IMG/VR virus record: IMGVR_UViG_3300010362_000019
Span: 1 to 55,326 of that record
Source: a virus
Lineage: Duplodnaviria; Caudoviricetes
Reading direction: 5' to 3' (one strand)
Length of the DNA: 55,326 nt
Position 1 is the first letter of the stretch; every line of letters starts with the position of its first letter. The notes below the pieces were generated by a model, which was given only the letters and a program-made list of their open reading frames with translations, had not been told where the DNA came from and made no database searches. The position numbers and the translations under genes are program-made. This document shows positions 7,236 through 42,189 of the stretch, piece after piece.

Positions 7236-7850
7236 ATGCCCACACCCGCTGACCTCGAGCGCTTCGAGTCGTTCGCCACCATGGTCGACAACATCCTGCA
7301 GCGCGAGAACGAACCGCCGGCACCGGACGAAGAGGTCTGGCGCCTGATGGAAGCGGGCCTGGGGACAAGCGAGGCGGCCGATCGCATCATCGCCGGCCGA
7401 GCGGTCAAGGCGGATCTGCAGGAGCGCCTGGGCGAGCCTGAGCCTGAGCCTGAGCCAGCTGCCGCCCAGACTGCCATGCTGCGCGTGGGCCCGTTCCCGG
7501 TCGAGGAGCTGCAGGCCACAGCACAGCGGGTCGCCAAGGCCGCCAGGATGCGCGTGGAGGCGCTGGACAGCGAGACCGGTGAGGTGGTCGGCACCATCGA
7601 GCCCCCGCCTCCAGAAAGCCGGTCCAAGCTGGTGCGCGCCATTGTGCCGGCCATGCCAACCGTCATCGATCTCATGGTGCGACCGGGCGGCGTCAGCGCG
7701 CTCGAGGTCAAAGAGACGCTCGGCTGGCACAAGATCCCAGGCCCCTGGTTCTTCAAGAGCTGGGCCAATCGAGCGGGCAGGGCAGGGGAGCTGCAGCACC
7801 TGGGCAAGCACGAGGACGGCAGTGACATCTGGAGGATCACCAGCTCATGA
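7236..7850 (+). CDS. Hypothetical protein, possible C-terminal winged helix; PE repeat linker
   Basis: GAGGAGG RBS; GAGCCT tandem repeats encoding EPEPEPEP. Confidence 0.7.
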   Translation: MPTPADLERFESFATMVDNILQRENEPPAPDEEVWRLMEAGLGTSEAADRIIAGRAVKADLQERLGEPEPEPEPAAAQTAMLRVGPFPVEELQATAQRVAKAARMRVEALDSETGEVVGTIEPPPPESRSKLVRAIVPAMPTVIDLMVRPGGVSALEVKETLGWHKIPGPWFFKSWANRAGRAGELQHLGKHEDGSDIWRITSS

Positions 7851-19930: not shown

Positions 19931-20371
19931 ATGGTGGCGAAGCGGAAAGCGAAGCCGAAGCCGAAGAAGCCAGTCCGGATCATCAAGCCCGGCGAGGCGC
20001 CTGGGCGTGGATCATCCCCAGGCGCACGCGGTCAGCAGGCGCGGTTCGTCGCCACCGAGGAGCAGCGCCGGCTCGTAGCCGCTCTGCGATCGTGCGGCTG
20101 GTCGCAGGAGAATATCAGCCTCGCCACCAAGCTGCCGCGCACCACGCTCAACCGACATTTCGCCAAGGAGATGGAAACCGGCGAGATGTCGATCAAAAGC
20201 AAGATCTCGCACAACATCATTGAGGGGGCGATGAACGGCGACCGAACCCTGATGATTTTCTATGCCAAGACGCAGATGGGGTGGAAAGACCGCGCCTCGA
20301 TCGGCTTCGAGGACGACAAGGGTCAGCCGATCAATCCGGCCGGGCTGTTTACCGTGAACATCAGCGGATGA
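19931..20371 (+). CDS. terS: Terminase small subunit (HTH type)
   Basis: EEQRRLVAALRSCGWSQENI...TTLNRHFAKEMETG...AMNGDRTLMIFYAKTQMGWKD, typical phage TerS pattern. Confidence 0.75.
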   Translation: MVAKRKAKPKPKKPVRIIKPGEAPGRGSSPGARGQQARFVATEEQRRLVAALRSCGWSQENISLATKLPRTTLNRHFAKEMETGEMSIKSKISHNIIEGAMNGDRTLMIFYAKTQMGWKDRASIGFEDDKGQPINPAGLFTVNISG

Positions 20372-23562: not shown

Positions 23563-23838
23563 ATGCCGCTATCCGCAGCTCAGCGTCGCAACATGCCGGC
23601 GTCGAAGTTCGCACTACCCGGTAAGGGCGAAGGCGAGGGCGGCAAAGGCCCAGGCGCATATCCGCTCGACACTCTGAAGCGGGCCCGCAATGCGCTGTCG
23701 CGTGGCTCCGAGTATGCGGCACCGAGCGCGCTCGAGGTGATCCGGCGCCGGGTGCACGAAGCTTTCCCATCCATCGACATCGCGCACCACAACGATGGAG
23801 GCTATGCGTTCCACCGCGGAGAGGGGCATGCACATTGA
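23563..23838 (+). CDS. DUF6582-like phage protein
   Basis: LSAAQRRNMPASKFALPG...YPLDTLKRARNALSR; AGGAGG RBS. Confidence 0.65.
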   Translation: MPLSAAQRRNMPASKFALPGKGEGEGGKGPGAYPLDTLKRARNALSRGSEYAAPSALEVIRRRVHEAFPSIDIAHHNDGGYAFHRGEGHAH

Positions 23839-24589
23839 GGCGCTCAGCGTCTGCGTAAACTTTCACGATGTGCTGGCGTTCACGCTGCCGGCGAACAAGT
23901 CACATTTCGACAGGATGGTCGTTGTCTCGGATACGACTGACGAGCTGACCAAGAACCTGTGCTCGCACCATCACGTTGAGCTGGTGCAGACCGACCAATT
24001 CTACCACAGCGATCAGGCGTTCGCGAAAGCGCGAGGCCTCAATGCCGGCCTGCAGCGGCTCTCACGTAAGGGCTGGATCGTGCACATGGATGCCGACATT
24101 GTCTTGCCGACGCGCACGCGAGAGATCCTCGGCCGGCTGCCGTTGGACCCTACCTGCATCTACGGCATCGATCGGATGATGTGTCCCGACTTCGGGGCGT
24201 ATATCCGCTACATGCAGAACCCGACGCAGATGCACACGGCAGAGACGTTCGTGATCCCCGAGCCCTTTCCTTTGGGCGCGCGAGTCGCACCGATGCAAGC
24301 CGGCAAGCTCTGGATGCCGATCGGCTTTTTCCAGCTTTGGAACCCAGAGGGCAGCGGTATACACGACTATCCGCACGACCACGGCACCGCGGGGAGGACC
24401 GATATGCTGCATGCCATGCGTTGGCCTCGTGAAAAGCGACAGCTCATCCCCGAGCTGATTGCTATCCACCTCGAGGGCCCGATCGCCAAGGGCATGAAGA
24501 ACTGGCGCGGCCGGCGCATGGGTCACTTCGGGCCGCCGCCTCACCAAGATCCACACCAGCCGCCTCCGTCCACCTACTGCGGTGAGTGA
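23828..24589 (+). CDS. Glycosyltransferase, GT-A fold (GT2-like)
   Basis: VCVNFHD.L..TLP, FAKARGLN, WIVHMDADIVLP (DxD), GFFQLW. Confidence 0.75.
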   Translation: MHIEALSVCVNFHDVLAFTLPANKSHFDRMVVVSDTTDELTKNLCSHHHVELVQTDQFYHSDQAFAKARGLNAGLQRLSRKGWIVHMDADIVLPTRTREILGRLPLDPTCIYGIDRMMCPDFGAYIRYMQNPTQMHTAETFVIPEPFPLGARVAPMQAGKLWMPIGFFQLWNPEGSGIHDYPHDHGTAGRTDMLHAMRWPREKRQLIPELIAIHLEGPIAKGMKNWRGRRMGHFGPPPHQDPHQPPPSTYCGE

Positions 24590-26102
24590 GTATCTCGGCA
24601 ATCGCGATGTGCTGTTCGATCCGTCGAACGGCACGCAGCCGCGGAATGATCTGCAGGACTACCATGAGCACCTGCCGATCCTGGCGCATCTGACGAGCGC
24701 GCCAGACCGGTTCCAGGGCGCGATATGGCCTTCCAACAATCCGGTCGGGACTGAATACGTCCAGGGAGCTGGGAACCCGTCAGGCCCGTTCGTAGAGGCG
24801 CCGCAGGGCGGCTGGAACGCAGAGCGCATCATGTCGCAGCCTGGGGCAGATGTGGCCGCCAACTTTGTGCTCGGTGTTGGCGGTGGACCGTTCCGTCGCG
24901 TGCCAAACCCGCTGACGGTCTATCACGGCACGCCGCACACGTTCCCGCCGACCGAGGGCAATCCGCTCGGTGAGTTCGATCTGTCGAAGGTAGGCTCAGG
25001 CGAGGGCTTCCAGGCCTATGGGCACGGTGTCTATCAAGCCGGCGCTGAGGATGTGGCGCGCGGCTATAAGGACAGGCTGAGCGGTGCTGCGATCATCCCA
25101 GGCGCTCCCAGTCATGTGCCCGGCTATGCGGTCGATGGCGTGTATCCGCCCACCGGCATGGCTGGCCATGCAGCAATGGACACCGCCATAGATCTGAATG
25201 GCCTGCTCTCGGCAATGCATGCGTATGAGAACAAGCCCTCTCACTCGTCGTATTGGAAAAAGGGAGATCCGATCGCCCCAGACTGGGACATGCGGCCGAG
25301 CTACCAGCAATCGATCGACTACCTGCGCCAAACGATCGAGCGGCGGATTGATGCGTTCCGTGAGCGCCTAGGTGGCGAGAAGCCCAGCGGCATCGCCGAT
25401 CGAGATATGGCCGATCTGGCCGACTACTACGATGCGCATGTCCGCAATGCGAAGCCAGAGGACGTGATGCAGCGCCCGCCTGGGCGGATGTATGAGTCCG
25501 AGTTCCATGCCGAGCTGCACGAGCTGCTGGATTGGGACAAGCCGCTCTCAGAGCAATCGCCCCAGGTGCGTGAAGCGCTGGCGAAGCTTGGCGTGACCCA
25601 GCCCGAAAAATGGGAATACGAGTGGACGACAGGTCCGAACGGCCGGCATGTGCTGTATCGCAGCGACTACCCCGACATGCCGCTGGCGACGCTGGAACCT
25701 GTCGAGAAAAACGCCCCCGACGACTGGTTCCATGTTCATCAGGGCAATGGATACGGAGCCTATGGAGGCGCCGGCCGTCTTGAGAGCGCCAAGCAGATGG
25801 CAGAGGACAAGTATGGGTCGCGGCTGTCACCCGAGACGCGGATGATGACCGGTGAGCAGCTGCTCGATGCGCTCAAGGCAAACTTGAGACACGAGGATAA
25901 CCCCCGCGTTGCTGCGGCTGAGGCGCTCCGCGATGCCGGCGTGAAAGGTATCCGCTACCTCGATGCTGATAGCCGTAGGAGAGGTGCTGGCACCTACAAC
26001 TACGTGGTGTTCGATCCGACCGCGCTGAACATCGTGCGACGCTACGGCATCGGCGCTCTGCTCGGTGGTGGAGCTGCTGCAGCTGCAGGGGAAGAACAGT
26101 GA
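24582..26102 (+). CDS. ADP-ribosyltransferase-like (ART-PolyVal-type) protein
   Basis: VYHGTPH..F..FDLSKVGSGEG.QAYGHGVY, LLDWDKPLSEQ, AGVKGIRYLD...NYVVFD. Confidence 0.7.
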   Translation: MSEYLGNRDVLFDPSNGTQPRNDLQDYHEHLPILAHLTSAPDRFQGAIWPSNNPVGTEYVQGAGNPSGPFVEAPQGGWNAERIMSQPGADVAANFVLGVGGGPFRRVPNPLTVYHGTPHTFPPTEGNPLGEFDLSKVGSGEGFQAYGHGVYQAGAEDVARGYKDRLSGAAIIPGAPSHVPGYAVDGVYPPTGMAGHAAMDTAIDLNGLLSAMHAYENKPSHSSYWKKGDPIAPDWDMRPSYQQSIDYLRQTIERRIDAFRERLGGEKPSGIADRDMADLADYYDAHVRNAKPEDVMQRPPGRMYESEFHAELHELLDWDKPLSEQSPQVREALAKLGVTQPEKWEYEWTTGPNGRHVLYRSDYPDMPLATLEPVEKNAPDDWFHVHQGNGYGAYGGAGRLESAKQMAEDKYGSRLSPETRMMTGEQLLDALKANLRHEDNPRVAAAEALRDAGVKGIRYLDADSRRRGAGTYNYVVFDPTALNIVRRYGIGALLGGGAAAAAGEEQ

Positions 26103-28177
26103 GCGAAACCACATCCCCGCCGGTCTACGATGACATGCTGTTCGGCCCGTCGACCGATCAGCGGCAATCGCTGCTGTCGTCCTACCTCACCCAGGTCGCG
26201 CACCTGCATGGCCTGAGCGACCACCTGGGACGCGATGCCCCGAGCATTGCGGATCTCGCGCCCCCGCCCACGCAGTATGCCGGCCAGATCTGGCCAGCGG
26301 GCAATGCGGTCGGGACCGAGCACCAGACTCTGCCTCCAGCTCCGACGTTCGAATGGAGCGTCACCCCAGGCGGCCGGCTGGCGGCGTCAGCCAACGACAA
26401 CCCGCTCACCCAAGGCACACCATCGCCTGGACAGGCAATCGCACATACGGGCCAGGACGTCGGCGACTGGGTGCAGCGTCAGCGAGACGAGGCTGAGCGC
26501 CTGGGGCTCTGGGATCCGGAGACCAACCGTCCCACAGCCAAGGGCATCCTCGAGGCCGCGCAGGAATACGGCGGCGCGATGCTCGGCGGCACCGAGGCAC
26601 CGAAGGCCGGCGCCGCGGCGATGAAAGCCCCAGGCGAGACCTTCACGAGCTGGATCAATCGCCTTGCAGGTGACGAGCGTGGTGGTGGTCCAAACCCCCT
26701 CGCTAAGCGCGCCAGGAAGGCGCCCAAGGCCCCCGACAATCCGCTCGAGCAAATCTCCAAGGACAATCCTCTCGCCGCCATGGAGCGTCCTGAGCCGGCT
26801 GGCGAAGAGTTCACTGTGCCGAGCCGCATCATCTCGCCGGCCGCTGCCAAGAAGCTGGGCCTTAACGCCTACGGAGCCAAAGAGAACCGCGTCGGCCTGG
26901 ACACCTACATGCAGCCCGGCGTCAGCGATCTGCGCGAGCGGCACGCTGGTCTGATCAAGGGCTATGGCGGCATCGTCGGTGTGCATCCCGACATGACCGC
27001 GGATGAGGCCGGCAAGGCCTTCCTCAATCACCTGCACGGCAACGTCAGCGGTCTCTACAACGAGCTGGTCGACCAGTGGGGCATGCCGATCGTTCGCGAT
27101 GCATCCCGCTGGTATGACGGTGCGAACAAGATCGTTCACCGGGAAGCGGAAAACTTCGGCCTCGAGCCCCAACAGGTCGCCGGAACATTCGCTGCTCTGA
27201 GCCCGCAGAAGGACTGGAACCAGAACGTCCTGCAGGGCCGGCGGCTGATGATGGCGGATAACGCCGGCAACCAGATGGGGCCCAATGGAACGTTCACCCC
27301 GAAGATGAAGGAGTGGGTGAACAACTACATTCTGACCATCAAGAACGAGAGTGACCTGACCGGCGACGCGTTGCGGGCCAAGATCGCCGAGGAGCGCAAG
27401 GCCTTCAAGGAGATCATGAACGTCCCGTATCGGGACTTGAAAACCTACCTTGAGAAGGCGCGCTGGGCCCGCGCCTGGGAGCAGGCAAACTTCCCCGATC
27501 GCAGCTACCGGCTGGTCGGTCCCAATGGCGAGGAGCTGGGGTTCGCCCAGACGAAGGGCGGCGAGAACCGTGCCCATTCTTGGGGCTCGTTCAAGGAGAT
27601 CGCCAACGCACTGAAGGCGATGCATGGCGACCAGAACCAGATCTCCCAGGCGGTCGGCAGCCAGCACAAGGTGCGATCGTTCTACAACAACCTGATCGCG
27701 CCCTGGTCGCCGGCTGGCCATACGACGATCGACACCCACGCCATTGCCGGGGCGCTCTTCCGCCCGCTCGGCAGCAAGTCAACGGAGGTGGCGCACGGCC
27801 TGGGCACCTCGCCATCGCCGATCAAGAACCCAGAGACCGGTGAGAAGTTCCGACCGATCGGTGCCAGCGGCCATGCTGAGACCGGCATCAGCGGCATGTA
27901 TCCGTTGTTCCACGAGGCCTACGGCCGAGCTGCCAACGGCAGTGAGCTGTGGATCCCGCGGCAGATGCAGTCGATCACCTGGGAAGGCACCCGTTCGCTG
28001 TTTCCAGATGTCCTAAAGCGTAACAAGGCATTCCAGGCAGAGGCCCACAAAGTGTGGCAAGATGCGGCTGCCGGGAAACTGAGTCCCGAGGAGGCCAGGG
28101 CGAAGATCATCGTCAGGGCGGCCGAGGTGATGAAGGGTGAGCCCGGCAAGATACCGCTACCGGAGTGGGCGAGATGA
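26099..28177 (+). CDS. Large protein with HhH-glycosylase-like domain (DUF7178-like)
   Basis: RWYD...AALSPQKDWNQN...HKVRSFYNN...TIDTHA...Y...AY.RAA...PRQMQSITW. Confidence 0.6.
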   Translation: MSETTSPPVYDDMLFGPSTDQRQSLLSSYLTQVAHLHGLSDHLGRDAPSIADLAPPPTQYAGQIWPAGNAVGTEHQTLPPAPTFEWSVTPGGRLAASANDNPLTQGTPSPGQAIAHTGQDVGDWVQRQRDEAERLGLWDPETNRPTAKGILEAAQEYGGAMLGGTEAPKAGAAAMKAPGETFTSWINRLAGDERGGGPNPLAKRARKAPKAPDNPLEQISKDNPLAAMERPEPAGEEFTVPSRIISPAAAKKLGLNAYGAKENRVGLDTYMQPGVSDLRERHAGLIKGYGGIVGVHPDMTADEAGKAFLNHLHGNVSGLYNELVDQWGMPIVRDASRWYDGANKIVHREAENFGLEPQQVAGTFAALSPQKDWNQNVLQGRRLMMADNAGNQMGPNGTFTPKMKEWVNNYILTIKNESDLTGDALRAKIAEERKAFKEIMNVPYRDLKTYLEKARWARAWEQANFPDRSYRLVGPNGEELGFAQTKGGENRAHSWGSFKEIANALKAMHGDQNQISQAVGSQHKVRSFYNNLIAPWSPAGHTTIDTHAIAGALFRPLGSKSTEVAHGLGTSPSPIKNPETGEKFRPIGASGHAETGISGMYPLFHEAYGRAANGSELWIPRQMQSITWEGTRSLFPDVLKRNKAFQAEAHKVWQDAAAGKLSPEEARAKIIVRAAEVMKGEPGKIPLPEWAR

Positions 28178-28395
28178 CCGACGCCAGAGAGTTCACCAGG
28201 GCCGAGCTGCAGCCATATGCCGACACCGACACCGTGGTGGAGCATATGCTGATGAAGGGCGTGCCGCTGACGCGCGAGAACTACCTGCAGCTCGCGTATG
28301 GCGCAGACATGCCGAAGGCCGCGGATTGGAACCACGAGCACGAGGCTGGACTGCCTGAGCCATTCCGCGATCCTAGCTCTGTAATTCCCGACTGA
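28174..28395 (+). CDS. Small acidic protein, candidate immunity/partner
   Basis: ATGA overlap; PLTRENYLQLAY...W..EHEAGLPEPF. Confidence 0.65.
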   Translation: MTDAREFTRAELQPYADTDTVVEHMLMKGVPLTRENYLQLAYGADMPKAADWNHEHEAGLPEPFRDPSSVIPD

Positions 28396-28416: not shown

Positions 28417-29922
28417 ATGCAGGCGATTAACTTCGACGTCAGCGATGCCCCGACCATCAAAGACTTCATGGCGAGCGACGCGTTCATGCGCGCTCTTATG
28501 GGACCATTTGGCTCCGGCAAAAGCAGCGGGTGTCTATTCGATCTCATAGCCAGGGGGCTGAAGCAGAAGCCTGGGCCTGACGGGATCCGAAGGACGCGGT
28601 TCGCGATCATCCGCAACACCTATCCGATGTTGCGAGACACGACGATCCGCACCGTTAACCTTTGGTTTCCGTGGCCCACGTTCGGCAAATGGAAGGCGGT
28701 TGACCATGAATACATGATCAACACGCTCGTGGCCCCAGGCGACAAGATGCCAGCTCAGATTGAGTTCATGTTCCGCGCGCTCGACAGACCGGAGCATGTG
28801 AAGAATTTGCTCTCGATGGATCTCACAGGCGCCTGGGTGAACGAGGCCAGAGAGGTTCCATGGGCGATCATCGATGCGCTCCAAGGCCGCGTCGATCGCT
28901 TCCCACCTGTCATGTATGGCGGCGCGAGTTGGGCAGGCGTCGTCATGGACACCAACCCGCCCGACACCGACAGCGAGTTCTTTAAGTTTTTCGAGGAGAT
29001 GGACCACAGCGATGCCGTCGCCGAGCTGTCGAAGCACATCCCAGGCATCACGCTGGACCGCTACTGCAGGATCTTCAAGCAGCCATCAGGGTTGTCGGAC
29101 GAGGCCGAGAACCGGAAGCACCAAGCACCCGGCTACTGGCACAGGATGGCGATCGGCAAGGATCCGGAATGGGTCAAAGTTTACTGCAAGGGTGAGTATG
29201 GCTTCGTCGTCGATGGCCGGGCCGTGTTCCCCGAATACCACGACAGCACGCATTGCCCAGGCAACACCGATCCGACGCGTGCACCGATCACCGACCCCAG
29301 GCTGCCCATCCAGCGCGGTTGGGATTTCGGATTAACGCCGAGCTGCATTTTCTCCCAGCTCACTGCCAAGGGTCAGTGGATCGTGGTCGACGAGATGGTC
29401 GCCAGCAGCATGGGCATCGACCGGTTTTCCGATCAGGTGCTGGATCATTCGGCGCGCTACTTCCCCAATTCTGAGTTCGAAGACGTCGGGGATCCCGCGG
29501 GCAATAGCCGCGCTGAGACCGACGAGCGCACGTGTTTCGATATCCTCCACGGCAAGGATATCCAGATTGAACCCGGCCTGCAGACCCCAACCATCCGCCA
29601 GGAATGTGTCCGTCGCGTGCTTCGGCGCATCGAGGATGGCGGCATGCCCGCTTTCAACTTGCACCCCAGGTGCACCATGACCCGCCGCGGACTGATGGGC
29701 GGTTACCATTTCCGTAAGATCGAGCTGCCGGGCCGCTCGCGTTTCTCTGAAAAGGCCGAGAAGAATAGCTATTCCCATCCGGTCGAGGCCATGTGCTACA
29801 CCGCGACTCGATTGTTCGGTGCTGCGTTACAGGCTCGAGACAATATCACAGACGACGACATCGTCGCTGCCAATTCCAGGCTGGTCAACGACCACACACG
29901 GAACCGGATTACAGGTTACTGA
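28417..29922 (+). CDS. terL: Terminase large subunit
   Basis: GPFGSGKS Walker A, WVNEARE Walker B, DTNPP, RGWDFGLTP, GDPAG, SHPVEA nuclease motifs. Confidence 0.95.
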   Translation: MQAINFDVSDAPTIKDFMASDAFMRALMGPFGSGKSSGCLFDLIARGLKQKPGPDGIRRTRFAIIRNTYPMLRDTTIRTVNLWFPWPTFGKWKAVDHEYMINTLVAPGDKMPAQIEFMFRALDRPEHVKNLLSMDLTGAWVNEAREVPWAIIDALQGRVDRFPPVMYGGASWAGVVMDTNPPDTDSEFFKFFEEMDHSDAVAELSKHIPGITLDRYCRIFKQPSGLSDEAENRKHQAPGYWHRMAIGKDPEWVKVYCKGEYGFVVDGRAVFPEYHDSTHCPGNTDPTRAPITDPRLPIQRGWDFGLTPSCIFSQLTAKGQWIVVDEMVASSMGIDRFSDQVLDHSARYFPNSEFEDVGDPAGNSRAETDERTCFDILHGKDIQIEPGLQTPTIRQECVRRVLRRIEDGGMPAFNLHPRCTMTRRGLMGGYHFRKIELPGRSRFSEKAEKNSYSHPVEAMCYTATRLFGAALQARDNITDDDIVAANSRLVNDHTRNRITGY

Positions 29923-30378: not shown

Positions 30379-30766
30379 CAACTACCGCGGCACGCGTGCG
30401 GTCGGAGATGGCATCTCCAACACCGAGGAAGAGCTGCGGGCCAATGACATGGTCGCCCTCGAGCAACTGCCGGCGTCGTTGCGCCAGCTCCTCTGCGAGC
30501 TGAACATCAAGCTGAGCGCTGTCACCGTCCTGGCGTTCTACCGCGACATCTGCAGCAAGGCCTCGAGCGACTACGAGGCCGAGGTCTATACGCAGCGAAA
30601 GCTGAACGCGATCGAGGACGAGGATCTGTCACGGTTCGCTGCAGACTATAACCGCAAGCACCGGGTGCGACTCCCTCACACCGCTGCGGAGGCGTCAGTC
30701 CTGCGTTACGGCTCTCTTGAACGCGTTGCGCGCAGGAGAGCGAAACTGTTACGCGTGCAGGCATGA
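30365..30766 (+). CDS. Hypothetical protein
   Basis: Overlaps both neighbours; ATGA with portal. Confidence 0.55.
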   Translation: MPRSDNYRGTRAVGDGISNTEEELRANDMVALEQLPASLRQLLCELNIKLSAVTVLAFYRDICSKASSDYEAEVYTQRKLNAIEDEDLSRFAADYNRKHRVRLPHTAAEASVLRYGSLERVARRRAKLLRVQA

Positions 30767-33132
30767 GCGACGTGATGTCTGCGGCCGGTGAGGCCGAGGC
30801 GACCGAACCCCAGGCACCAGAGCCACAGCTGCCTGACCTCAATGCGCTGATGCCGCGGCGGCCGGCGATGTTCCCCGGCATGATGCGCGAGCCCCAGCTG
30901 GAGATCCCAGAAGGCGGCGACGATCGGCCGCTCCTCAAGCTAGAGATCGCCAGGGATATCGCGGAGCGGATCGCGCGCAAGAACCTGTGCGACGACATGG
31001 ACCGTGGTGATGCCCAGAGCGTCGCCGAGCGGGCCAAGCGTGAATACAAGATCGATGACGACACCCGCGCCGAATACAAAACCCGCTACCGCGAATGGCT
31101 CGATTTCGCGATGCAGGTGGCGCGCAAGAAGACCTATCCATGGCCGGATGCGAGCAACGTCATCTTCCCATTGATCACCGTCGCTGCGCTGCAATTCTCG
31201 GCGCGCGCCTACCCGGCGATCGTCATGGGCCGCAACGTGGTCAAGGGCACCGTCGAGGGCCTCGACCGCGGCGTCGCAGAGATCAATCCGCAGACCGGGC
31301 AGCCGATCACCAACCAAGCCGGGCAGGTTCAATGGATCACCCCGCCTGGGCAGAAGCAGACCAGGGCCGACAACATCGGTCGGCACATGAGCTGGCAGTT
31401 GTTGTCAGAAATGACCGAGTGGGAAGACCAGACCGACCGACTGCTGATCATCGTCGCCATCGCGGGCACGATGTTCAGAAAAACGTATTACGACCCGGCG
31501 GCCCGGCGGAATGTGTCAGAGACTGTCAACGCTCTCAGGGTGTGCGTGAACTACCACGCCCGGTCGTTCGACGACGCTCCGCGCATCAGCGAGGAGATCG
31601 ACTTCCTGCCGTGGGAGGTGGAGAGCAACATCAGAGCTGGGCTGTGGTTGGATTACGGCGAGGGCTGGCAGGGCTACGGCCGCAACACCGAGGGCCCGTA
31701 TGTCGGCCTGCAGGATGAGCAGGCGCCCATCACCTTCATCGAGCAGCACCGCAGAGAGGATTTGGATGGCGACGGCTATGCGGAGCCGATCATCATCACG
31801 TTCGCCCGTGACAGCGGCCGGGTCGCGCGCATCACCGTTGGCTTCGACGAGGACAGCATCGAGGCGACATTAGACGGTGAGATCCAGCGGATCGAGCCTA
31901 TCCGCTACTACACGCCCTACACGTTCGTGCCGAACCCCGACGACAGCCCCTATGCGATCGGCTTCGGCAATCTGCTGTATCCGATCAACGCCAGCATCAA
32001 CACGTCGATCAACCAAATGTTCGACGCCGGCCATCTGCAGAACGCTGGTGGTGGCTTCATCGGCGGCGGCGCCAGCATGAACAGCGGCTCGGTCAGGTTT
32101 ATGACCGGCGAGTATAAGGTGGTGAACACGAGCGGCCGGGCGCTGCGCGAGAACATCGTCCCGCTTGAGTTCCCAGGCGCCAGCAATGTGCTGTTTCAGC
32201 TGCTCCAGTTCCTCGTCGAGGCGGCGAAGGAAATTGCCTCGATCAACGATGTGCTGAGTGGCCAGCTCCCAGGCGCCAATGTGCCCGGTATCCTTGGCCT
32301 TGCTGTCATCCAGCAGGGCTTGAAGACATTCAACGCGTGCTTCAAGCGGGTCCACCGCAGCCTGCGCAAGGAATACGAGAAGCTGTTCCGGTTGAACCGG
32401 CTGTATCTACCCGACACCGCGGGCTATCGCATGGGCTCGCAGTATTTCCAGATCAGCCGGGCAGACTATGCACTGGGTGGTGGCGTCGAGCCGGTGAGCG
32501 ATCCGGAGATGACCACCGACATCCAACAGATGGCCCAGGCGAATTTCTTGGCTCAGTTCCTGGGCGATCCGTTCTTCGACCAGCGCGAGATCCGGCTGCG
32601 TATGCTGCAGGCTGCAGCGATCCAGCAGATCGACAAGCTGCTCGCCGCACAGCAGCCGCCCAACGCAGCGATCCTCACCCAGATGGCCGAGCTGGATCTG
32701 CAGCAGCAGGTGGTTGCGGCCGAGAAGAAGATGGTGGATCTGCGCCAGGAAGAGCTGCGCATCCGCGCCGCGAAGGAAGAGGCCGAGCTGTCGATCCGCC
32801 GCGGCAAGGATAAGGCCGAGGAGATCCAGAAGCTCTCGCAGGCAATCTTGAATTTGGCGAACGCCAAGAAGGCCGACGCCGAGGTCGATCAGCGCTGGTA
32901 TGAGCAGCACCTCGCTGTTCTCAAGCACCAGATCGACTTGCTGAACATCATGGCTCCAGAGACCGAGGAGGGACGCGACGTCGAAGACATCTCCATTGAC
33001 ACCCCCGGCCCGCATAATGGAGCAGGAGGACTTGGACTCCCGGCTGCAGGGCCTCCAGCAATTCCGCGAGTCGGATTTCCAGGCATGGCGTCACCACCCG
33101 GTCTCCAAGGTGGTGCTCCAGTTCCTGGCTGA
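30763..33132 (+). CDS. Portal protein
   Basis: 789 aa after terL; KTYPWPDASNV.FP, QFSARAY, NQMFDAGHLQN, C-terminal coiled-coil barrel as in P22-like portals. Confidence 0.9.
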   Translation: MSDVMSAAGEAEATEPQAPEPQLPDLNALMPRRPAMFPGMMREPQLEIPEGGDDRPLLKLEIARDIAERIARKNLCDDMDRGDAQSVAERAKREYKIDDDTRAEYKTRYREWLDFAMQVARKKTYPWPDASNVIFPLITVAALQFSARAYPAIVMGRNVVKGTVEGLDRGVAEINPQTGQPITNQAGQVQWITPPGQKQTRADNIGRHMSWQLLSEMTEWEDQTDRLLIIVAIAGTMFRKTYYDPAARRNVSETVNALRVCVNYHARSFDDAPRISEEIDFLPWEVESNIRAGLWLDYGEGWQGYGRNTEGPYVGLQDEQAPITFIEQHRREDLDGDGYAEPIIITFARDSGRVARITVGFDEDSIEATLDGEIQRIEPIRYYTPYTFVPNPDDSPYAIGFGNLLYPINASINTSINQMFDAGHLQNAGGGFIGGGASMNSGSVRFMTGEYKVVNTSGRALRENIVPLEFPGASNVLFQLLQFLVEAAKEIASINDVLSGQLPGANVPGILGLAVIQQGLKTFNACFKRVHRSLRKEYEKLFRLNRLYLPDTAGYRMGSQYFQISRADYALGGGVEPVSDPEMTTDIQQMAQANFLAQFLGDPFFDQREIRLRMLQAAAIQQIDKLLAAQQPPNAAILTQMAELDLQQQVVAAEKKMVDLRQEELRIRAAKEEAELSIRRGKDKAEEIQKLSQAILNLANAKKADAEVDQRWYEQHLAVLKHQIDLLNIMAPETEEGRDVEDISIDTPGPHNGAGGLGLPAAGPPAIPRVGFPGMASPPGLQGGAPVPG

Positions 33133-33860: not shown

Positions 33861-34766
33861 ATGTCAGGCACAGCAGAGCAGACGGGCGTAGAAGGCGGCA
33901 CAGGCGCACCGCCTCCGGACCCCGCACAGCAGACAAACGGCGAAGACTTCGAAGCCCGCGCGAGGGGCATGGGCTGGCGCCCGCGCAATGAGTGGACGGG
34001 CCCCGACTATAGATGGGTAGATGCCAAGACGTTCGTCGAGCGTGGCGAGCGCATCATCCCAGTGCAGCGAGAGCGCAACGCCGCTCTTGAGAAGCGCATA
34101 CAGGAGCAGCAAGGCCAGATCTCCGAGATGCGCGACATGATGGCGCAGCAGATCGAGCGCACGCGCCGCGCTGAGCAGATCGGCTACAAGCGGGCGATGC
34201 GTGAGCTGGAGGCCCAGAAGGCTGAAGCTGTGCGCAATGCGGATCCCGTGGCGGTCGCTCGGGTCGATGAGCAGATACGCGATATGGGACCGGATCCGCT
34301 GCTCGAGCAGCGTGTTCAGCAGCCCGCACCACAGCCGCAGCAGCAGCAAAACACACCGGATCCGATCGTGGTCGACTGGGTCGACGACAATCCGTGGGTG
34401 ACCCAGAACCCGGCCGCCTGGGACATGGCAGTGGTGACCTTAAATCGCGTGAGGGCTGAACGGCCGAGGACGTCCCTCGAGGAACAGCTCGCGGAGGTCA
34501 AGAAACGCGTCATGCCCCTATTTGTCCAAGATGCCGGCAGCTCAGCTCCGTCTCGCCGCGATGCGCCGGCCGCTGTCGCCCGATCGCAGAGCGCTGGCGT
34601 TTCGACTCGCGTGCAGCCGCGGACGTTCGCCGCGATGCCGCTCGAGGTGCAGAAGCAATACGAGAAGGAGAAGCGCGTCCTGCATGGCAAGGGCAAGGAG
34701 CTGACCCGCGAAGAGTTCGCCGAGTATTACTGGGACCAGTTCCCCGTCGATGATGGGGTCTCGTGA
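33861..34766 (+). CDS. Capsid scaffolding protein
   Basis: EARARGMGWRP..EW...WVDAKTFVERGE, coiled coil, DWVDDNPW, EEFAEYY; position. Confidence 0.7.
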   Translation: MSGTAEQTGVEGGTGAPPPDPAQQTNGEDFEARARGMGWRPRNEWTGPDYRWVDAKTFVERGERIIPVQRERNAALEKRIQEQQGQISEMRDMMAQQIERTRRAEQIGYKRAMRELEAQKAEAVRNADPVAVARVDEQIRDMGPDPLLEQRVQQPAPQPQQQQNTPDPIVVDWVDDNPWVTQNPAAWDMAVVTLNRVRAERPRTSLEEQLAEVKKRVMPLFVQDAGSSAPSRRDAPAAVARSQSAGVSTRVQPRTFAAMPLEVQKQYEKEKRVLHGKGKELTREEFAEYYWDQFPVDDGVS

Positions 34767-34975
34767 TGGCGCTAATCGCTGATCGAGACGCTTTCGAGAA
34801 CGCGGTGATGCAGCTCTGGCATGTCGCGTCATGGTGCAAGAACGAAACCGGCGAGCTGGTGCCAGCTCCCAGCAGAGATGTGCAGCGCTACCGCTCTGCC
34901 ATTCGGGTTGCACTGTCAGGACTGTTCAACGCACCGATCAAGACCAGTGCCGAGGTAGAGAACCACAATGAGTGA
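34763..34975 (+). CDS. Hypothetical protein
   Basis: Overlapping start/stop. Confidence 0.45.
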   Translation: MMALIADRDAFENAVMQLWHVASWCKNETGELVPAPSRDVQRYRSAIRVALSGLFNAPIKTSAEVENHNE

Positions 34976-35510
34976 CCGCGTCCCCTTGAACGAGCACGCT
35001 GCAGCAGCTGCGCAGCGTCGCCGGATCGCACCCGAGCATTTCGCTGCCGCCCAGGCGATCAGCGCCGGGACAACGACGGATCCCGAGGACCAGCTTGAGG
35101 TCGATGAGCTGGAGAAGCGCAGGCGCAACCGCAAACCGTTCGGCTCCCTCGAGCAGAAGCTGCAATTCCCAGACAGGCCCGGCTACCATCGCCACTGGTT
35201 CAATGACGACCCAGGCCGGCTCGCGCGCGCGGAGGAAGCCGGCTACTCCCAGGTCAACGACGAACACGGCAAGCCGGTGCACTGCGTTGTCGGCATCTCG
35301 CGCGGCGGCGGCCCGCTCACAGCATACTTGCGAGAAATTCCGTTGCAGTGGTATCAGGACGACATGGCGGCTCAAGAGAACGTTGTTCTTGAGCTGATGC
35401 GACAGATAAAGCGGGGCGAATTTGAACGCCCAGGCGGCGCTGATGGTGCCGCAAGATATGCTGGCAGCAGCAAGGGTGACATCTCCATCCGAGAGTCATA
35501 CCGCAGGTAA
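34968..35510 (+). CDS. Conserved head-module protein
   Basis: RPGYHRHWFND..GRL..A..AGY...YLREIPLQWY. Confidence 0.7.
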   Translation: MSDRVPLNEHAAAAAQRRRIAPEHFAAAQAISAGTTTDPEDQLEVDELEKRRRNRKPFGSLEQKLQFPDRPGYHRHWFNDDPGRLARAEEAGYSQVNDEHGKPVHCVVGISRGGGPLTAYLREIPLQWYQDDMAAQENVVLELMRQIKRGEFERPGGADGAARYAGSSKGDISIRESYRR

Positions 35511-35623
35511 TATCCGCCCAGGCCGCACTGCGCCGGGTGCTGAGTAGAGAACCCTCTCCTTAAAACCCAGCGCAGTCTGCGTGCTCCAGGCGCGCACTGC
35601 CGCATACGTGGAGTGCTCGCCGC

Positions 35624-36247
35624 ATGGCGAACCCCAACACGCCGTATGGGTTGCGGCCGTATGCCTATATGTCGGGGGCGCCATACAATGGCGCAGTTCG
35701 CGTCTACTACGTCCCCGTAGGCAACAGCACCGCGCTCTACCTCGGCGATCCCGTCAACCTCGTTGCCAGCTCATCTGATGGCAACGGTGTGCCCACTGCA
35801 GAGATCGCGACAGGCGGCGCCGGGCATCAGATCCTCGGTGCGTTCCTTGGTATCGCGAACAACGCAGGCGAGAGCGTCATCACGTTGCTGCAGTCGCAGA
35901 CGCCGTATCTCGCGGCGGCCCAGGCGGCCTACATCTACGTGTCTGACGACCCGTTCCTGCTCTACGCGGTGCAGGAGGACAGCGTCGGTGGCAACATCAC
36001 CTCAGATGCTGCCTCGAGCGCGAACGCGAACCTGATCGCTGGTGCAGGCAGCACGTTCACTTCGCAATCCGGTTGGCTGCTGGATAGCTCCACCGTTGGC
36101 AGCGGCGGCTCTGATGCCACCAAACAGGTGCGCATCATCCAGGCCCTCCAAGAGATCGACAACAGCATTGGCAACTTCGCCAAGTGGCTGGTGAAGATCA
36201 ACGAGGGTGTGTCCGCGTTCACCAACCCCGCCTCTGGCGGCACATAA
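35624..36247 (+). CDS. Capsid-associated (decoration/cement-like) protein
   Basis: MANPNTPYGLRP...LYLGDPV...VSDDP; immediately before MCP. Confidence 0.7.
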   Translation: MANPNTPYGLRPYAYMSGAPYNGAVRVYYVPVGNSTALYLGDPVNLVASSSDGNGVPTAEIATGGAGHQILGAFLGIANNAGESVITLLQSQTPYLAAAQAAYIYVSDDPFLLYAVQEDSVGGNITSDAASSANANLIAGAGSTFTSQSGWLLDSSTVGSGGSDATKQVRIIQALQEIDNSIGNFAKWLVKINEGVSAFTNPASGGT

Positions 36248-36259
36248 GGAGCCGCGCAG

Positions 36260-37165
36260 ATGGCAGTCATTACGACTGGGACGCATCCGAAGGCGCTATG
36301 GCCTGGGATCCGTGCGTGGTGGGGTCGAAGCTACGACGAACACCCGACAGAGTTCTTGGATCTGTTCGACAAGCAGACCAGCGACAAGGCATACGAGGAA
36401 GAGGTCGAGATCACCGGCTTCGGTCTCGCGCCGGTCAAGCCGCAAGGTCAGCAGATCTTCTACGACATCGAGGCGCAGGGCAGCATCTCGCGGTTCACGC
36501 ACGTGGCCTACGCGTTGGGCTACATCGTGACCTACGAAGAGCTGCGCGACGATCTCTATGACGTGGTGTCTCGCCGCCGCGCATCGCAGTTGGCGTTCTC
36601 GATGCGGCAGACGAAGGAAAACGTGCTCGCTGGCGTCTACAATCTTGCCTTCAGTGCCAGCGCGCTCGGTGGTGATGGTCAGCCGCTGATCTCAGCGTCG
36701 CATCCGACGATGTCGGGCTCCCAGTCAAACCTGGGCACCGCGGCAGATCTGTCGGAGGTCTCGCTCGAGAACCTGACGGTGCAGATCATGCAGATGCAGA
36801 ACAACAGGGGCATGCGCATCAGCGGTCTGCCCATGTCGTTGCATGTGCCGCCGCAGCTCTTCTTCGAGTCCAACCGCGTGTATAATTCTGTGCTGCAGAA
36901 TGATACCGCGAACAACGCGATCAATGTGCTGAGGGCCACTGGCACCTTCCCGCGCGGGATCAAGGTCAACCATTACTTCAGCTCGGCGACCGCATACTTC
37001 ATCCGCACCAACGTGCCCAACTCACTGACCTATTTCGAGCGCGATGCAATCTCGTTCGATCAGGACAATGATTTTGACACAAAAAATGCCAAGGCAGCCT
37101 GCTACGAGCGTTACAGCGGCTACTGGGCAGATTGGCGCGGGATCTACGGCAACCAGGGCGTATAG
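36260..37165 (+). CDS. Major capsid protein
   Basis: KALWPGI, SDKAYEEEV, GFGLAPVK, YALGYIVTYE, GGDGQPLISASHP, DFDTKN..ERYS; AGGAG RBS. Confidence 0.9.
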   Translation: MAVITTGTHPKALWPGIRAWWGRSYDEHPTEFLDLFDKQTSDKAYEEEVEITGFGLAPVKPQGQQIFYDIEAQGSISRFTHVAYALGYIVTYEELRDDLYDVVSRRRASQLAFSMRQTKENVLAGVYNLAFSASALGGDGQPLISASHPTMSGSQSNLGTAADLSEVSLENLTVQIMQMQNNRGMRISGLPMSLHVPPQLFFESNRVYNSVLQNDTANNAINVLRATGTFPRGIKVNHYFSSATAYFIRTNVPNSLTYFERDAISFDQDNDFDTKNAKAACYERYSGYWADWRGIYGNQGV

Positions 37166-37269
37166 CCCGCGGGGCAGCGGCTCGAGGCTCGGGTCGCTGC
37201 CGATCACCGTGTCCCGAGGCGGGTAAGCGCCAGCGCGACTCTGGCGGGCACACTCAGGAGATCTGACCG

Positions 37270-38253
37270 ATGGCGTTCACCAACTTTCCGAACGGTATCA
37301 CTTCGCTCGGCATCCCCACGTTCGGCGCATCGATGGTGCCGCCGTTCCCCAGCAAATATCTCTTCGTGCAGGAGCGCACCACCGCAGGCGTGAGCGCCGG
37401 GTCGGGCACTGCACAGGATCCGTTCAACACGCTCGAGCAGGCGCTCGCGCAGTGCACGTCAGGCGCCAACGACGTCATCTTCATGACCGGCACCGTGCAC
37501 CCGACCGCCACGATCGCGTGGTCGAAGAACAACACCCATCTGGTCGGCCTCTGCGCACCGCTGAAGCGCGGCAAGCGGGCCCGGCTATCTGTGACCGGCT
37601 CGACGGCTTACGGGCCCCTGGTGAGCGTCACGGGCAACGGCTGCATCTTCCAGAACATCGGCACCTTCTACGGCTTCGCAGTCACTGGCTCGACCAGCCC
37701 GATCTGCTGGCAGGATACCGGTGGGCGCAACAGCTATAACCTCGTCGAGTTCCTGGGCTTCGGTGATGGCACTGCCTCCACCGGCACCAGCAATCAGACC
37801 GGTGCGCGCGCGTTCAAGATGAACACCAGCACGGGAGAGAGCACGTTCCGAGACTGCGTGTTCGGCGTCGACACCATCCAGCGTGGCGCGACCAACTACA
37901 CGGTGGAGATCGCCGGCGGTGCGCCGCGTATCAGCTTCGAAGGCTGCGATTTCGAGGCAGATCTGGCAGCTGGTGGCGCTGGCGGATCGCACCTGCTCAT
38001 CGGCGCATCGGGCATCGATCGCTACCTCGAAATGCGCGACTGCATCTTCAACAGCGCGACGAAGAGCAGCGGCACCGCGATGACGCAGTGCATGAACATC
38101 AACAGCGCGGCCGGCGGATACGTGATCCTCGATGGCTGCACCGGCTTCGGGTTCACCCACTGGGAAACCAGCGCGAGCGGTTGCTTGGTCATCAACATGG
38201 CGGCGCCGACTGCGCACGACGGTGGCATCGCGGTCGCTGCGTCACCCTCGTAG
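37270..38253 (+). CDS. Right-handed beta-helix (pectate lyase-like) virion protein
   Basis: PFNTLEQALAQCT...DVIF cap followed by repeated x-F-x-x-C-x-F coils. Confidence 0.65.
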   Translation: MAFTNFPNGITSLGIPTFGASMVPPFPSKYLFVQERTTAGVSAGSGTAQDPFNTLEQALAQCTSGANDVIFMTGTVHPTATIAWSKNNTHLVGLCAPLKRGKRARLSVTGSTAYGPLVSVTGNGCIFQNIGTFYGFAVTGSTSPICWQDTGGRNSYNLVEFLGFGDGTASTGTSNQTGARAFKMNTSTGESTFRDCVFGVDTIQRGATNYTVEIAGGAPRISFEGCDFEADLAAGGAGGSHLLIGASGIDRYLEMRDCIFNSATKSSGTAMTQCMNINSAAGGYVILDGCTGFGFTHWETSASGCLVINMAAPTAHDGGIAVAASPS

Positions 38254-38264
38254 GAGGAGCCCTC

Positions 38265-38705
38265 GTGGCAGACGCAGTCACCAGCCAGCTGCTCGACAAC
38301 GGGCCGAAGTGGGCCGTCTACAAGTTCACCAACGTCAGCGATGGGGGTGGCGAGACCGGTGTCGTCAAGGTCAACGCCACGAGCACAGGGCCTCTGGGCG
38401 TCACGGTGCAAGGTCAAACCTTTTACCCTGGCGTCCACCTCGAGGTCGTGGCGCTCGAGTATGACGTCCGCACCATGGCGGTGCGCATCATGTGGGAAGC
38501 GACCGCCAACGACGATATGTGGATCGCGAGCGGCGCTGGTGCTGGACCGTTCATCTTCTTGGATCGGCGCGGTGGCTTCCAGGGACTGAAGAACCCCAAC
38601 AGCGCTGGTGCGACCGGCAGCATTCTCTTCACGACGATCGGTGCTGCAGCGGGCGCCACCTACTCGATCATCATGAAGCTGAACAAGGGCATCCCACAGG
38701 CATGA
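38265..38705 (+). CDS. Virion structural protein
   Basis: GGAGGAG RBS, GTG start; KFTNVSDGGGETGVVKV...TYSII. Confidence 0.7.
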   Translation: MADAVTSQLLDNGPKWAVYKFTNVSDGGGETGVVKVNATSTGPLGVTVQGQTFYPGVHLEVVALEYDVRTMAVRIMWEATANDDMWIASGAGAGPFIFLDRRGGFQGLKNPNSAGATGSILFTTIGAAAGATYSIIMKLNKGIPQA

Positions 38706-38720
38706 TGAGGGTGACCCAAC

Positions 38721-39464
38721 ATGGCCGACCAGCTCTGGTATAACCCAGGAGACCATTACCAGCTCGACGATCTCTCTGGCTTTAAGATCCGCGCATCGCG
38801 GTCGATGAAGATCCCCGGTGGTCAAACCGGGGGCCTCATCGTCGCACCAGAGCGGTTCGAAGTTCAGCAGCCGCAGGATTTCGTCCGCGGTGTCGTCGAT
38901 GATCAGACAGTCACCGATGCCCGGCCGCGGCAGCAGAACCAGTTCGTCATCCTGGCGACATACGTCACTGCGCCGAGCGCTCGAGGCACCAGCATCATCA
39001 CTGTCGCGAGCACGGCGGGCTGGCGCATCAACGACAACGCGTTCCTGATGTTGGACTCAGGCGAAAACTTCCTGACTTCGATCGGCGGCATCAGCGGTCA
39101 GCAGATCTTCCTGGGCACCCCGCTGCCGTTCTCTGTCGGCACGCTCTACGGGGATCCGCTGGAGAACACGCTGCTCTTCTACCAGCACGGCCCAGCTCAG
39201 GTGACCGGCTTCTATAACAACGGGGGCGTGCTCGGGATCATCTACCCCAGCTCATTGCCCACCAGCTCAGCAGTCCCAGGCGCTGTGTATGACACTGGCG
39301 GCACGGTCGGCATCGTCCCAGGCGTTGGCCCAGGCACGCTCGAGCTGTTCTTCAACGAGGTGAGCCAGGGCTACCTGCTCGCCAATGGCGGCGGCCAGCT
39401 TCCGGCATCCGCGAGCGTAGCAAACCAGCTGTATAACAACGGTGGGGAGATCGGCATTGCGTAG
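38721..39464 (+). CDS. Virion-associated protein (PQDFVRG family) with appended domains
   Basis: GD...DDLSGFK...QPQDFVRGVVDDQ..RPR; YxNGG repeats. Confidence 0.65.
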   Translation: MADQLWYNPGDHYQLDDLSGFKIRASRSMKIPGGQTGGLIVAPERFEVQQPQDFVRGVVDDQTVTDARPRQQNQFVILATYVTAPSARGTSIITVASTAGWRINDNAFLMLDSGENFLTSIGGISGQQIFLGTPLPFSVGTLYGDPLENTLLFYQHGPAQVTGFYNNGGVLGIIYPSSLPTSSAVPGAVYDTGGTVGIVPGVGPGTLELFFNEVSQGYLLANGGGQLPASASVANQLYNNGGEIGIA

Positions 39465-41424: not shown

Positions 41425-42182
41425 TGCTGAAAGCGCTCGCCCTCCTCGCCGGCCTGCTACTGCTGTCGGTCGCTGCGCGGTCGCAGCCGGCGCTCGATGG
41501 CCACGCGACCGGAAGCGCGACATCTGGCACCACGACCACGATCTCGGTCACCACCGCGGCGAACCCCGAGATCCTCATCGTCTCAGCAGCGGTGCGCGCG
41601 ACTGGCACGACCAACCCGACGCTGTCGATTTCTGGCTGTTCGCTGAGCTGGAACGCACTGGGCACGCCGGCACAGTTCAACAACAACTCGTCCAAGGGCA
41701 CCGGCATTTACGCGTGGTATGCGCAATCTGCGTCGAACCTGTCCTGCACGATCACTGTCACCAGCGACCAGACAATTCAAAATTCGTCGGCCGCCTACTG
41801 CAGCTTCTCTGGCATCAACACCAGCAATGCTTTCGACCCAGGCGCTACGCCGCCCACCACTGAGACGAACAGCACCAACAGCACATCCGACATGCGGGTG
41901 ACGCTGTCCACCAGCTTGGCGCACAGCACGATGGTGGTGGCGAGCGGTCAGACCTCGGCGAACATGGGTGGCACGAGCCTCAGCGCAGGCGCCACAGCGT
42001 GCGCGAACATCACCAACGCTGGCGGGCTCAATTTCTCCAACGCTTACGTCATCTACCAGACGTTCACCTCGACCCAGAGCAGCCTCAGCTTCGGAAACGC
42101 GACCAACCAGCCATATTACAACACTGTCGGAACGGCATTGACGGCCGATGCGCCGCTCAGCCATTCGCGGCTGATCCAGTGA
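41424..42182 (+). CDS. Ser/Thr-rich beta-sandwich protein with N-terminal signal peptide
   Basis: MLKALALLAGLLLLSVAARS-Q; TGATG overlap. Confidence 0.75.
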   Translation: MLKALALLAGLLLLSVAARSQPALDGHATGSATSGTTTTISVTTAANPEILIVSAAVRATGTTNPTLSISGCSLSWNALGTPAQFNNNSSKGTGIYAWYAQSASNLSCTITVTSDQTIQNSSAAYCSFSGINTSNAFDPGATPPTTETNSTNSTSDMRVTLSTSLAHSTMVVASGQTSANMGGTSLSAGATACANITNAGGLNFSNAYVIYQTFTSTQSSLSFGNATNQPYYNTVGTALTADAPLSHSRLIQ

Positions 42183-42189
42183 GGAGCTG

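Follow-up and report, generated by a model that had tools for sequence, protein, structure and literature searches.

Two adjacent genes of a tailed phage, here called p1 and p2, start with a similar peptide and continue as different enzymes, directly 5' of the large terminase gene terL. The DNA is the IMG/VR virus record IMGVR_UViG_3300010362_000019, of 55,326 bp (the window, that is, the whole stretch analysed; completeness estimate ~79%; G+C ~60-68%), and the question raised by this locus is what a common N-terminus does on two unlike proteins encoded beside terL. An earlier note on this DNA had read it as an undescribed leader that routes swappable effectors into the head. The comparisons presented here support, at the level of sequence, a constant leader, swappable cargo and a virion-module setting; with a probability of about 0.5, this leader (or header) would dock the cargo onto an internal virion assembly, packing the enzyme for exit with the DNA.

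The leader shared by p1 and p2

24582-26102, + strand: p1, 506 amino acids (aa), GTG start.
24582..24767, + strand: leader of p1, aa 1-62, made up of block A (MSEYLGNRDVLFDPS), a variable middle and block B.
24723..24755, + strand: core motif of p1, IWPSNNPVGTE, aa 48-58; 54.7 bits with the 30-row leader profile.
26099-28177, + strand: p2, 692 aa, GTG start.
26099..26323, + strand: leader of p2, aa 1-75, made up of block A (MSETTSPPVYDDMLFGPS), a longer middle and block B.
26288..26320, + strand: core motif of p2, IWPAGNAVGTE, aa 64-74; 40.4 bits with the 30-row leader profile.

The likeness between p1 and p2 is confined to the first 60-75 residues, as the earlier note had described it. BLASTP of the two proteins gave a single significant segment (aa 9-59 of p1 against aa 12-75 of p2, 23/65 identical, 33.5 bits, E 2e-5), all the remaining segments having E >= 0.26. 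The Smith-Waterman score of the N-termini was 82, compared to 27.8 ± 5.1 for shuffled sequences (none of 2000 as high); beyond the N-termini it was 46, compared to 42 ± 5.7 (41 of 200 shuffles as high). The alignment consists of two blocks, A (MSE..D[VM]LF.PS) and B (G.IWP..N.VGTE), and both genes open GTG-AGY-GAR (M-S-E). Both leaders are predicted to be disordered: the predicted local distance difference test (pLDDT) was below 50 across most of aa 1-101 in the AlphaFold model of p1 (mean pLDDT 68), and for aa 1-23 and 38-117 in the AlphaFold2 (AF2) model of p2. The repeated NPL tripeptides that the same note had pointed out exceed the shuffle means in both proteins: two in p1 (aa 109, 127; a count reached by 106 of 20000 shuffles, with a mean of 0.12) and four in p2 (aa 101, 199, 214, 223; shuffle mean 0.19; 2 of 20000 reach four). 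The 30-row leader profile had 0 matches in the PDB.

The leader in other phages and the exchange of cargo behind it

The 38 IMG/VR loci matched by a degenerate DNA pattern for IWxxxNP[VI]GTE carry the motif in frame in every case, and a reversed-codon control pattern had 0 matches in IMG/VR. The pattern left third codon positions free, so the conservation would lie in the peptide. In the 30-row leader alignment I, W, N, G, T and E are invariant, and many rows continue with T-[LV]-Q-S-x-G-M-P-x-P-T. The 30-row profile retrieved 38 proteins of 142-916 aa from 5.8 billion: 10 annotated as DUF7178, 2 as ART-PolyVal (a family of ADP-ribosyltransferases, ART), 2 as PF18838 (marginal E) and 24 without a family. 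The position of the motif is strict: it starts at residue 25-75 in 43 of the 43 proteins among the matches listed (32 new, 11 earlier), and in 35 of the 38 loci no more than 121 residues separate it from the upstream stop of its stop-to-stop frame (exceptions L076, L086, L096). Leader length is ~60-75 aa in p1 and p2 and ~95-145 aa in the relatives. The p1-type orthologues P0003 and P0014 open MSEYLGNRDVLFDPS; the closest p2 relatives, P0016 and P0018, open MSDALGKRDMLFDPS, which is almost block A of the p1 orthologues; and eight further DUF7178 proteins have block B at residue 25-65.

Earlier searches had been nearly empty: word-index searches with two- and three-row leader profiles returned only p1, p2 and one p1 orthologue, and an exhaustive HMMER search of 1.84 billion representatives with a short leader profile gave 7 matches at E <= 0.001, two of them genuine (P0001, P0003). 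The near-absence of matches is attributable to the short profile, since the motif scan and the 30-row profile later retrieved the family. The other five HMMER matches were set aside; each consisted of 3-11 short stretches, and the two inspected (P0007, P0011) were repeat proteins. The alignment of p1 orthologues found nothing in metagenome contigs, and a stricter DNA pattern adding G-x-I-W-P had 0 viral matches and one in metagenomes, a contig of 1634 nt holding a p1 orthologue and its upstream gene with the order kept. The search for related loci in viral contigs with p2, with terL and with the two-row leader found nothing. The 8 matches of the pattern in the prokaryote genome collection were read as chance: their flanks are unrelated in all, against a rough chance expectation of ~26 matches, and the motif stands away from the protein N-terminus in seven, while in L124 it opens the stop-to-stop frame.

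The 65 unique leader proteins include 62 with enough C-terminal sequence to be clustered: 24 ART-type proteins (including p1); 29 grouped with p2, a cluster mixing classical DUF7178 proteins with longer ones unnamed or weakly matched by Pfam; 4 in a third cluster, two of whose members are narrowly above the DUF7178 cut-off; and 5 in small groups. Cargo classes are mixed in 4 of the 11 pre-motif clusters with several members (reading of the clustering by eye). A recognised virion gene lies on the same strand within 5 kb in 30 of the 38 loci, and in 11 of the 38 no more than 3 nt separate the cargo gene from a portal-type gene (most reference virion genes were checked by PHROGs; the G001 'portal' was left out). 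The test proposed in the earlier note, a search for the leader on different C-termini near head genes, speaks for the note: the leader is carried by ART-type, DUF7178-type and other cargo, mostly in the vicinity of virion genes. The individual arrangements include a cargo gene between the adaptor and nozzle genes (L073); cargo directly after two large proteins, one with an endolysin-like domain as in internal virion proteins (L087/G002); and, in the complete 43-kb phage behind L088, the order portal, ART with leader, second cargo, scaffold and capsid. Taken together, the clustering and the gene context link G004-type portals to leader cluster 2 and G001-type capsid genes to clusters 1 and 4.

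The plainest evidence that cassettes are exchanged behind a constant header comes from four pairs of close phages, in which flanking virion genes are 86-98.5% identical and the cargo matches over its first 96-147 residues only. In L076 and L069 the portal is 89% identical over 645 aa and the capsid-type gene 98.5% over 406 aa, and the gene directly 3' of the portal is alike only in its first 147 residues (81%), beyond which one phage has an ART and the second another domain. In the other pairs the likeness of the cargo is again confined to its first part: 99 aa at 80% in L094/L085 (flanking gene 94.5% identical across 707 aa), 96 aa at 80% in L079/L075 (capsid-type gene 91% across 373 aa) and 108 aa at 66% in L088/L103 (portal 86% across 596 aa). 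L075 also has a 478-aa gene without leader (L075:6301-7737) between genes that match the flanks of the ART cargo in L079; the C-terminus of its product is, we assume from its motifs, SGNH-hydrolase-like.

The tandem of p1 and p2 is one of at least three such pairs, since neighbouring genes of L088, and likewise of L091, resemble each other at their N-termini. The second cargo of L088 has the N-terminus and the post-motif stretch of the first and lacks the IW core; the two genes of L091 are 66% identical over their first 53 residues. A second leader type is hinted at by two head-module proteins of roseobacter podoviruses, phiGT1 gp5 (L067:4918-6081, ART-type) and CRP-738 gp40 (L066:5783-8290, DUF7178-type), which have in common a different, weak N-terminal motif at the same position (aa 32-55 against aa 30-53; 24 aa, E 0.004).

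The two enzymes, the partner gene and the genome setting

24909..26051, + strand: catalytic core of p1, ART-type and interrupted by large inserts, ~aa 110-490, from VIA-align, conserved residues and PF18760 matches of relatives.
26052..26099, + strand: Gly/Ala-rich C-terminal tail of p1, in the consensus of ART-type relatives.
26324..26785, + strand: linker of p2, aa 76-229, predicted mostly disordered, with four NPL and a small helical unit at aa 118-159 (AF2).
26786..28174, + strand: DUF7178 domain of p2, aa 230-692, predicted helical fold (PF23802, 65.1 bits, cut-off 27, E 1e-17).
28174..28395, + strand: small acidic protein, 73 aa, ATG start, ATGA overlap with the p2 stop.

The predicted model of p1 has an ADP-ribosyltransferase fold, and p1 can be assigned to the ART-PolyVal type by fold and by its relatives, not by a Pfam match of its own. 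The 'ART-like' of the earlier note therefore holds at these two levels and fails for Pfam on p1 itself, which had no PF18760 (ART-PolyVal) match at E <= 0.1 and no Pfam match above threshold. The leader-bearing relative L088 passes the PF18760 cut-off (32.2 bits, cut-off 31.2), and L102, L076 and L105 stay under it (24.7-28.2 bits). The best VIA-align match of p1 was 9k3a_B, from cyanophage A4's pre-ejectosome (Z 10.7, root-mean-square deviation (rmsd) 4.9, 150 aligned), the matched part being residues 1279-1608 of chain B; matches to diphtheria toxin, poly(ADP-ribose) polymerases (PARPs), ParT and MbcT had Z 6.5-7.9 overall (diphtheria toxin 7.9 with 126 aligned, tankyrase 7.8, PARP13 7.6, ParT 7.0, MbcT 6.7). 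The active site described for ART-PolyVal is H-Y-D, with His in strand 1, Tyr in strand 2 and Asp in strand 5 (PMC5512222, in the section cited). In the alignment of ART-type relatives H115, Y151 and D461 of p1 are nearly invariant and D478 is present in p1; D461 and D478 are candidates for the strand-5 Asp.

The relatives of the p1 core occupy 63 IMG/VR loci, many within giant open reading frames (ORFs) of 2000-4260 aa, and in three of these (L055, L035, L059; 2754-3026 aa) the ART-type domain is followed ~400-600 residues on by DUF7178, in p1-p2 order. The Gly/Ala-rich tail (..YG..AGL.GGGAAAAA..) is seen again in ART-type cargo, and the two cargo genes of L088 each have a similar one (5600-5697, and the end of the next gene, ~7330-7400); from its recurrence in sequence, it may be a second signal.

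The C-terminal part of p2, modelled with block-mean pLDDT of at least 89 from ~aa 230 to the C-terminus, belongs to DUF7178, a family with at least 207 detected members, and PF23802 was found on 120 of the 120 p2 relatives among the matches listed. Its best fold match was the queuine-salvage enzyme QNG1/DUF2419 (Z 8.7, 219 aligned, rmsd 4.3); the VIA-align entries include 7u07_A (Z 8.7) and 3n0u_A (Z 8.4), and by name Tm1821 (8.4), AGOG (7.0), OGG1 (6.6), EndoIII (6.5) and MagIII (6.4). Glycosylases make up many of the top 30 rows, and QNG1, the 8-oxoguanine glycosylases, EndoIII, MagIII and MutY span Z 8.7 to 5.5; all of these values are to be read with the caution that helical folds with Z below ~13 can reflect a common arrangement. 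For the p2 model, Foldseek returned no PDB match at E <= 0.001, and the p2 sequence profile likewise brought up nothing relevant in the PDB. K524 and D545 are invariant, in HKVRSF...TIDTHA, a stretch that we take to resemble the 'VDxH' region of EndoIII and OGG1. The consistent family of matches and the Z values below the level of caution leave the glycosylase-like assignment at moderate confidence: the earlier note's 'glycosylase-like' stands as a weak to moderate fold resemblance to HhH-GPD-type DNA glycosylases, under the bar for helical folds. From its model p2 probably acts on nucleic-acid bases, and the fold weakly suggests the same for DUF7178 as a family. P0017, a p2 relative of 1182 aa, has a leader-like N-terminus (MSD...NPL...), an extra middle domain and then DUF7178; the string GGGPNP[LF] recurs in it at apparent domain boundaries, and p2 has ERGGGPNPL.

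The 73-aa protein (14 D+E, 6 K+R) appears from sequence comparison to be a conserved downstream partner of DUF7178-type cargo. It matched the gene directly 3' of a p2-like gene in G002 (phmmer, E 4e-17), and homologues were found by tblastn directly 3' of DUF7178-type cargo in L087, L075, L095 and L085, the four of four loci with downstream sequence; the ART-type cargo of G001 and G003 had no partner gene of this type. A role as inhibitor, immunity protein or chaperone for the glycosylase-like enzyme is plausible.

The genes p1, p2 and the small ORF ending at 28395 form three closely coupled genes on the + strand just 5' of terL: the p1 start overlaps the stop codon of its upstream neighbour (GTGAGTGA), and the p2 start overlaps that of p1 (GTGA). 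The two head genes that follow are:

28417-29922, + strand: large terminase gene terL (phrog_2, E 1.4e-20).
30763-33132: portal gene (phrog_1216, E 8e-16).

Genes for a capsid protein, a T7-type adaptor, a nozzle and an internal virion protein with a lytic domain are recognised 3' of the portal gene, and on these the phage is classed as a podovirus with a predicted T7-like particle architecture. Internal virion proteins are placed at 50222-52804 and from 52808 on. No prohead protease was recognised with PHROGs and Pfam in the ten window ORFs 3' of the portal (33861-44915), nor between the portal and capsid genes of the complete phage behind L088; three ORFs without assigned family remain in these scans and leave room for one. 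The gene upstream of p1 (23795-24589) is glycosyltransferase-family-2-like (Pfam, 26.9 bits, just below the cut-off of 27.5), and such a gene also lies directly 5' of the p1 orthologue of metagenome contig L068, with the same stop/start overlap. A basic protein of 146 aa is encoded at 19931-20371, ~8 kb 5' of terL, and by eye we take it to be small-terminase-like; if so, the glycosyltransferase-like gene and the p1-p2 cassette fall between both terminase genes.

How the leader may act

The proposed mechanism is as follows. p1 and p2 would be two cargo enzymes of a podovirus virion module; their header, consisting of a lineage-specific first part and the near-invariant core IWxxxNP[VI]GTE, is modular with respect to the enzyme that follows, since related phages retain header and gene slot and swap the C-terminal domain. 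The header would dock as an extended peptide at the portal/pre-ejectosome region of the procapsid, and the docked enzyme would be packed in the head and leave it together with the DNA. From the modular leader and its setting we infer a loading signal, a receptor and co-injection. A docking header is favoured by the predicted disorder of the leaders and by the precedents of the A4 pre-ejectosome and of P1 DarB. The complex prediction for the window portal with a 61-aa leader segment (score 0.01, mark 0.32) counts neither way on binding.

The principle is known in three forms: the capsid-targeting sequences of T4 and P1, the MuF polymorphic toxins and the polyvalent proteins. The capsid-targeting signal of T4 has ~10 residues and is removed by the prohead protease. 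The leader resembles the T4 internal proteins and P1 DarB, itself a polyvalent-type protein, in being an N-terminal element on otherwise unrelated proteins (at least two unrelated folds here). It differs from the T4 case in that no protease was recognised, and in its greater length (~60-145 aa) and predicted disorder; its targeting function is putative. A T4-style cleaved capsid-targeting sequence is ranked low, since the ORFs scanned in the head modules, including those from portal to capsid, yielded no recognisable prohead protease. In phage P1 the first 30 residues of DarB suffice for sending a reporter into the capsid, and the authors describe no consensus among the Dar N-termini in the passages cited (PMC9024508); unlike these, the present leader can be picked out from sequence in many phages.

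The MuF polymorphic toxins of temperate phages combine a constant virion-associated N-terminus with a variable toxic C-terminus, as outlined in PMC5576092, and they share with the present system a gene beside the portal and a small downstream partner gene. Three things set the present system apart from MuF: its constant part is predicted to be a disordered peptide instead of a folded head protein, the phages that carry it are podoviruses whose adaptor and nozzle genes are T7-like, and neither p1 nor p2 had a MuF domain among its Pfam matches at E <= 0.1. Polyvalent proteins carry two to fifteen effector domains per polypeptide; Iyer et al. 2017 (PMC5512222) predict their packaging and injection and consider an N-terminal 'header' domain for ArdC-N. 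The likeness to them lies in an ART of the PolyVal family and in DUF7178 being fused with that ART in the three giant ORFs mentioned above; p1 and p2 differ in having one recognisable enzymatic domain and a leader of their own each, and the leader is not among the domains described for polyvalent proteins in the portions of PMC5512222 cited here. The closest structural precedent is A4 gp27, whose N-proximal residues 114-154 project into the core as a plug, as given in the cited part of PMC12002296. From the residue numbers, chain B of 9k3a is presumably gp27, which would thus share with p1 an ART-type fold (Z 10.7) located inside the virion above the portal; unlike the leader proteins, gp27 has more than 1700 aa, and the PDB search with the 30-row leader profile brought out no relation between the two in sequence. 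The main text of PMC12002296 contains 'ADP-ribosyltransferase' and 'transferase' 0 times, and its authors do not call this domain an ART there.

Several points weigh against docking in the head. The pair in the window precedes terL and does not lie 3' of the portal. In the comparison of six genomes (the window and five complete relatives), the leader family alone was found in 5 of 6; head proteins were not detectable between the six by phmmer or BLAST, those of the window having no phmmer match, and the portals of core-carrying phages belong to different PHROGs (1216 and 156). It is odd that a docking peptide should outdo its own receptor in conservation, and a core more conserved than the head proteins leaves room for a host-side or other role. 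No receptor for the leader was identified. The leader was found in 0 of the 63 other ART-bearing IMG/VR loci (BLAST, regular expression, 30-row hidden Markov model, E <= 10), from which it follows that ART-type cargo gets into virion modules without it; and in three genomes the second gene of a pair is without the IW core, so the core is not required on every cargo.

The conservation of the core, greater than that of any structural protein across the carrier phages, would be accounted for by a header working after ejection, on the host side, as a disordered docking or translocation segment whose core binds a conserved host factor and brings the enzyme to its target or across the envelope. Host proteins evolve slower than phage head proteins, and colicins have unstructured N-terminal translocation regions, comparable to a disordered region made of short motifs with NPL repeated. 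We consider this explanation unlikely in view of the strict N-proximal position, the lineage-specific first part that tracks the head-module type, and the cargo genes abutting portal genes. The leader could also be read as a pro-region that keeps the potentially toxic enzymes harmless or chaperoned in the producing cell and is removed or displaced at assembly, with the head-protein cleavage motifs of T4 and phiKZ as a model for cleavage after ...GTE. The homology of p1 and p2 stops right after GTE, and a small acidic partner is conserved after DUF7178-type cargo. This pro-region is nevertheless improbable: conservation in the relatives runs 30-40 residues beyond GTE, one disordered peptide is unlikely to inhibit two unrelated folds, and the head-module ORFs scanned in the window and in the L088 phage include no recognisable prohead protease.

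It is about as improbable that duplication, recombination or gene conversion at the cassette junction left the shared 5' ends as a by-product, the constant part being a platform for recombination or translational coupling and the peptide having no targeting role. The overlapping stop and start codons point to translational coupling, the swap junctions fall just past the constant part, and paired genes in one genome have alike 5' parts. These observations are outweighed by the retention of specific residues in leaders that are only 35% identical between p1 and p2, by a core invariant as protein in 30 diverse sequences, by the match of a pattern with free third positions, which argues for conservation of the peptide, and by the motif position at residue 25-75 in 43/43 proteins listed. 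Docking in the head thus remains the preferred reading, and the earlier note's proposal of effectors routed into the head is supported in part: for the modular leader, the swaps and the virion context, with head loading and co-injection as putative steps. 'Undescribed' fits the literature searched, in which no publication on DUF7178 or the motif strings was found; the principle has the close analogues described above.

What appears to be new, as judged by sequence comparison, is a recognisable disordered leader whose 11-residue core is invariant, together with its occurrence on at least two enzyme folds that are unrelated; direct evidence of cargo exchange at one slot in near-identical podoviruses; and the link of DUF7178, a family without assigned function, to the virion-cargo class. 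It can tentatively be put forward that the header is a portable, sequence-defined loading/ejection signal, used across podoviruses with unalignable head proteins. What such a signal recognises would be either a part of the portal/ejectosome channel that is invariant in structure, or a receptor on the host side; whatever protein is fused to its C-terminal end would enter the particle and reach the infected cell, and phages would have a natural plug-and-play slot for trading anti-host enzymes. Injection of enzymes along with the DNA, to disarm the host, is known or predicted for phages, and the entry route of single-domain effectors into podovirus heads is known in very few cases. If the proposed role is true, virion-borne effectors would become findable in metagenomes by their tag instead of by enzyme family, the loading/ejection route in T7-like particles would gain a testable handle, and engineered laboratory phages would have a natural fusion point for protein delivery.

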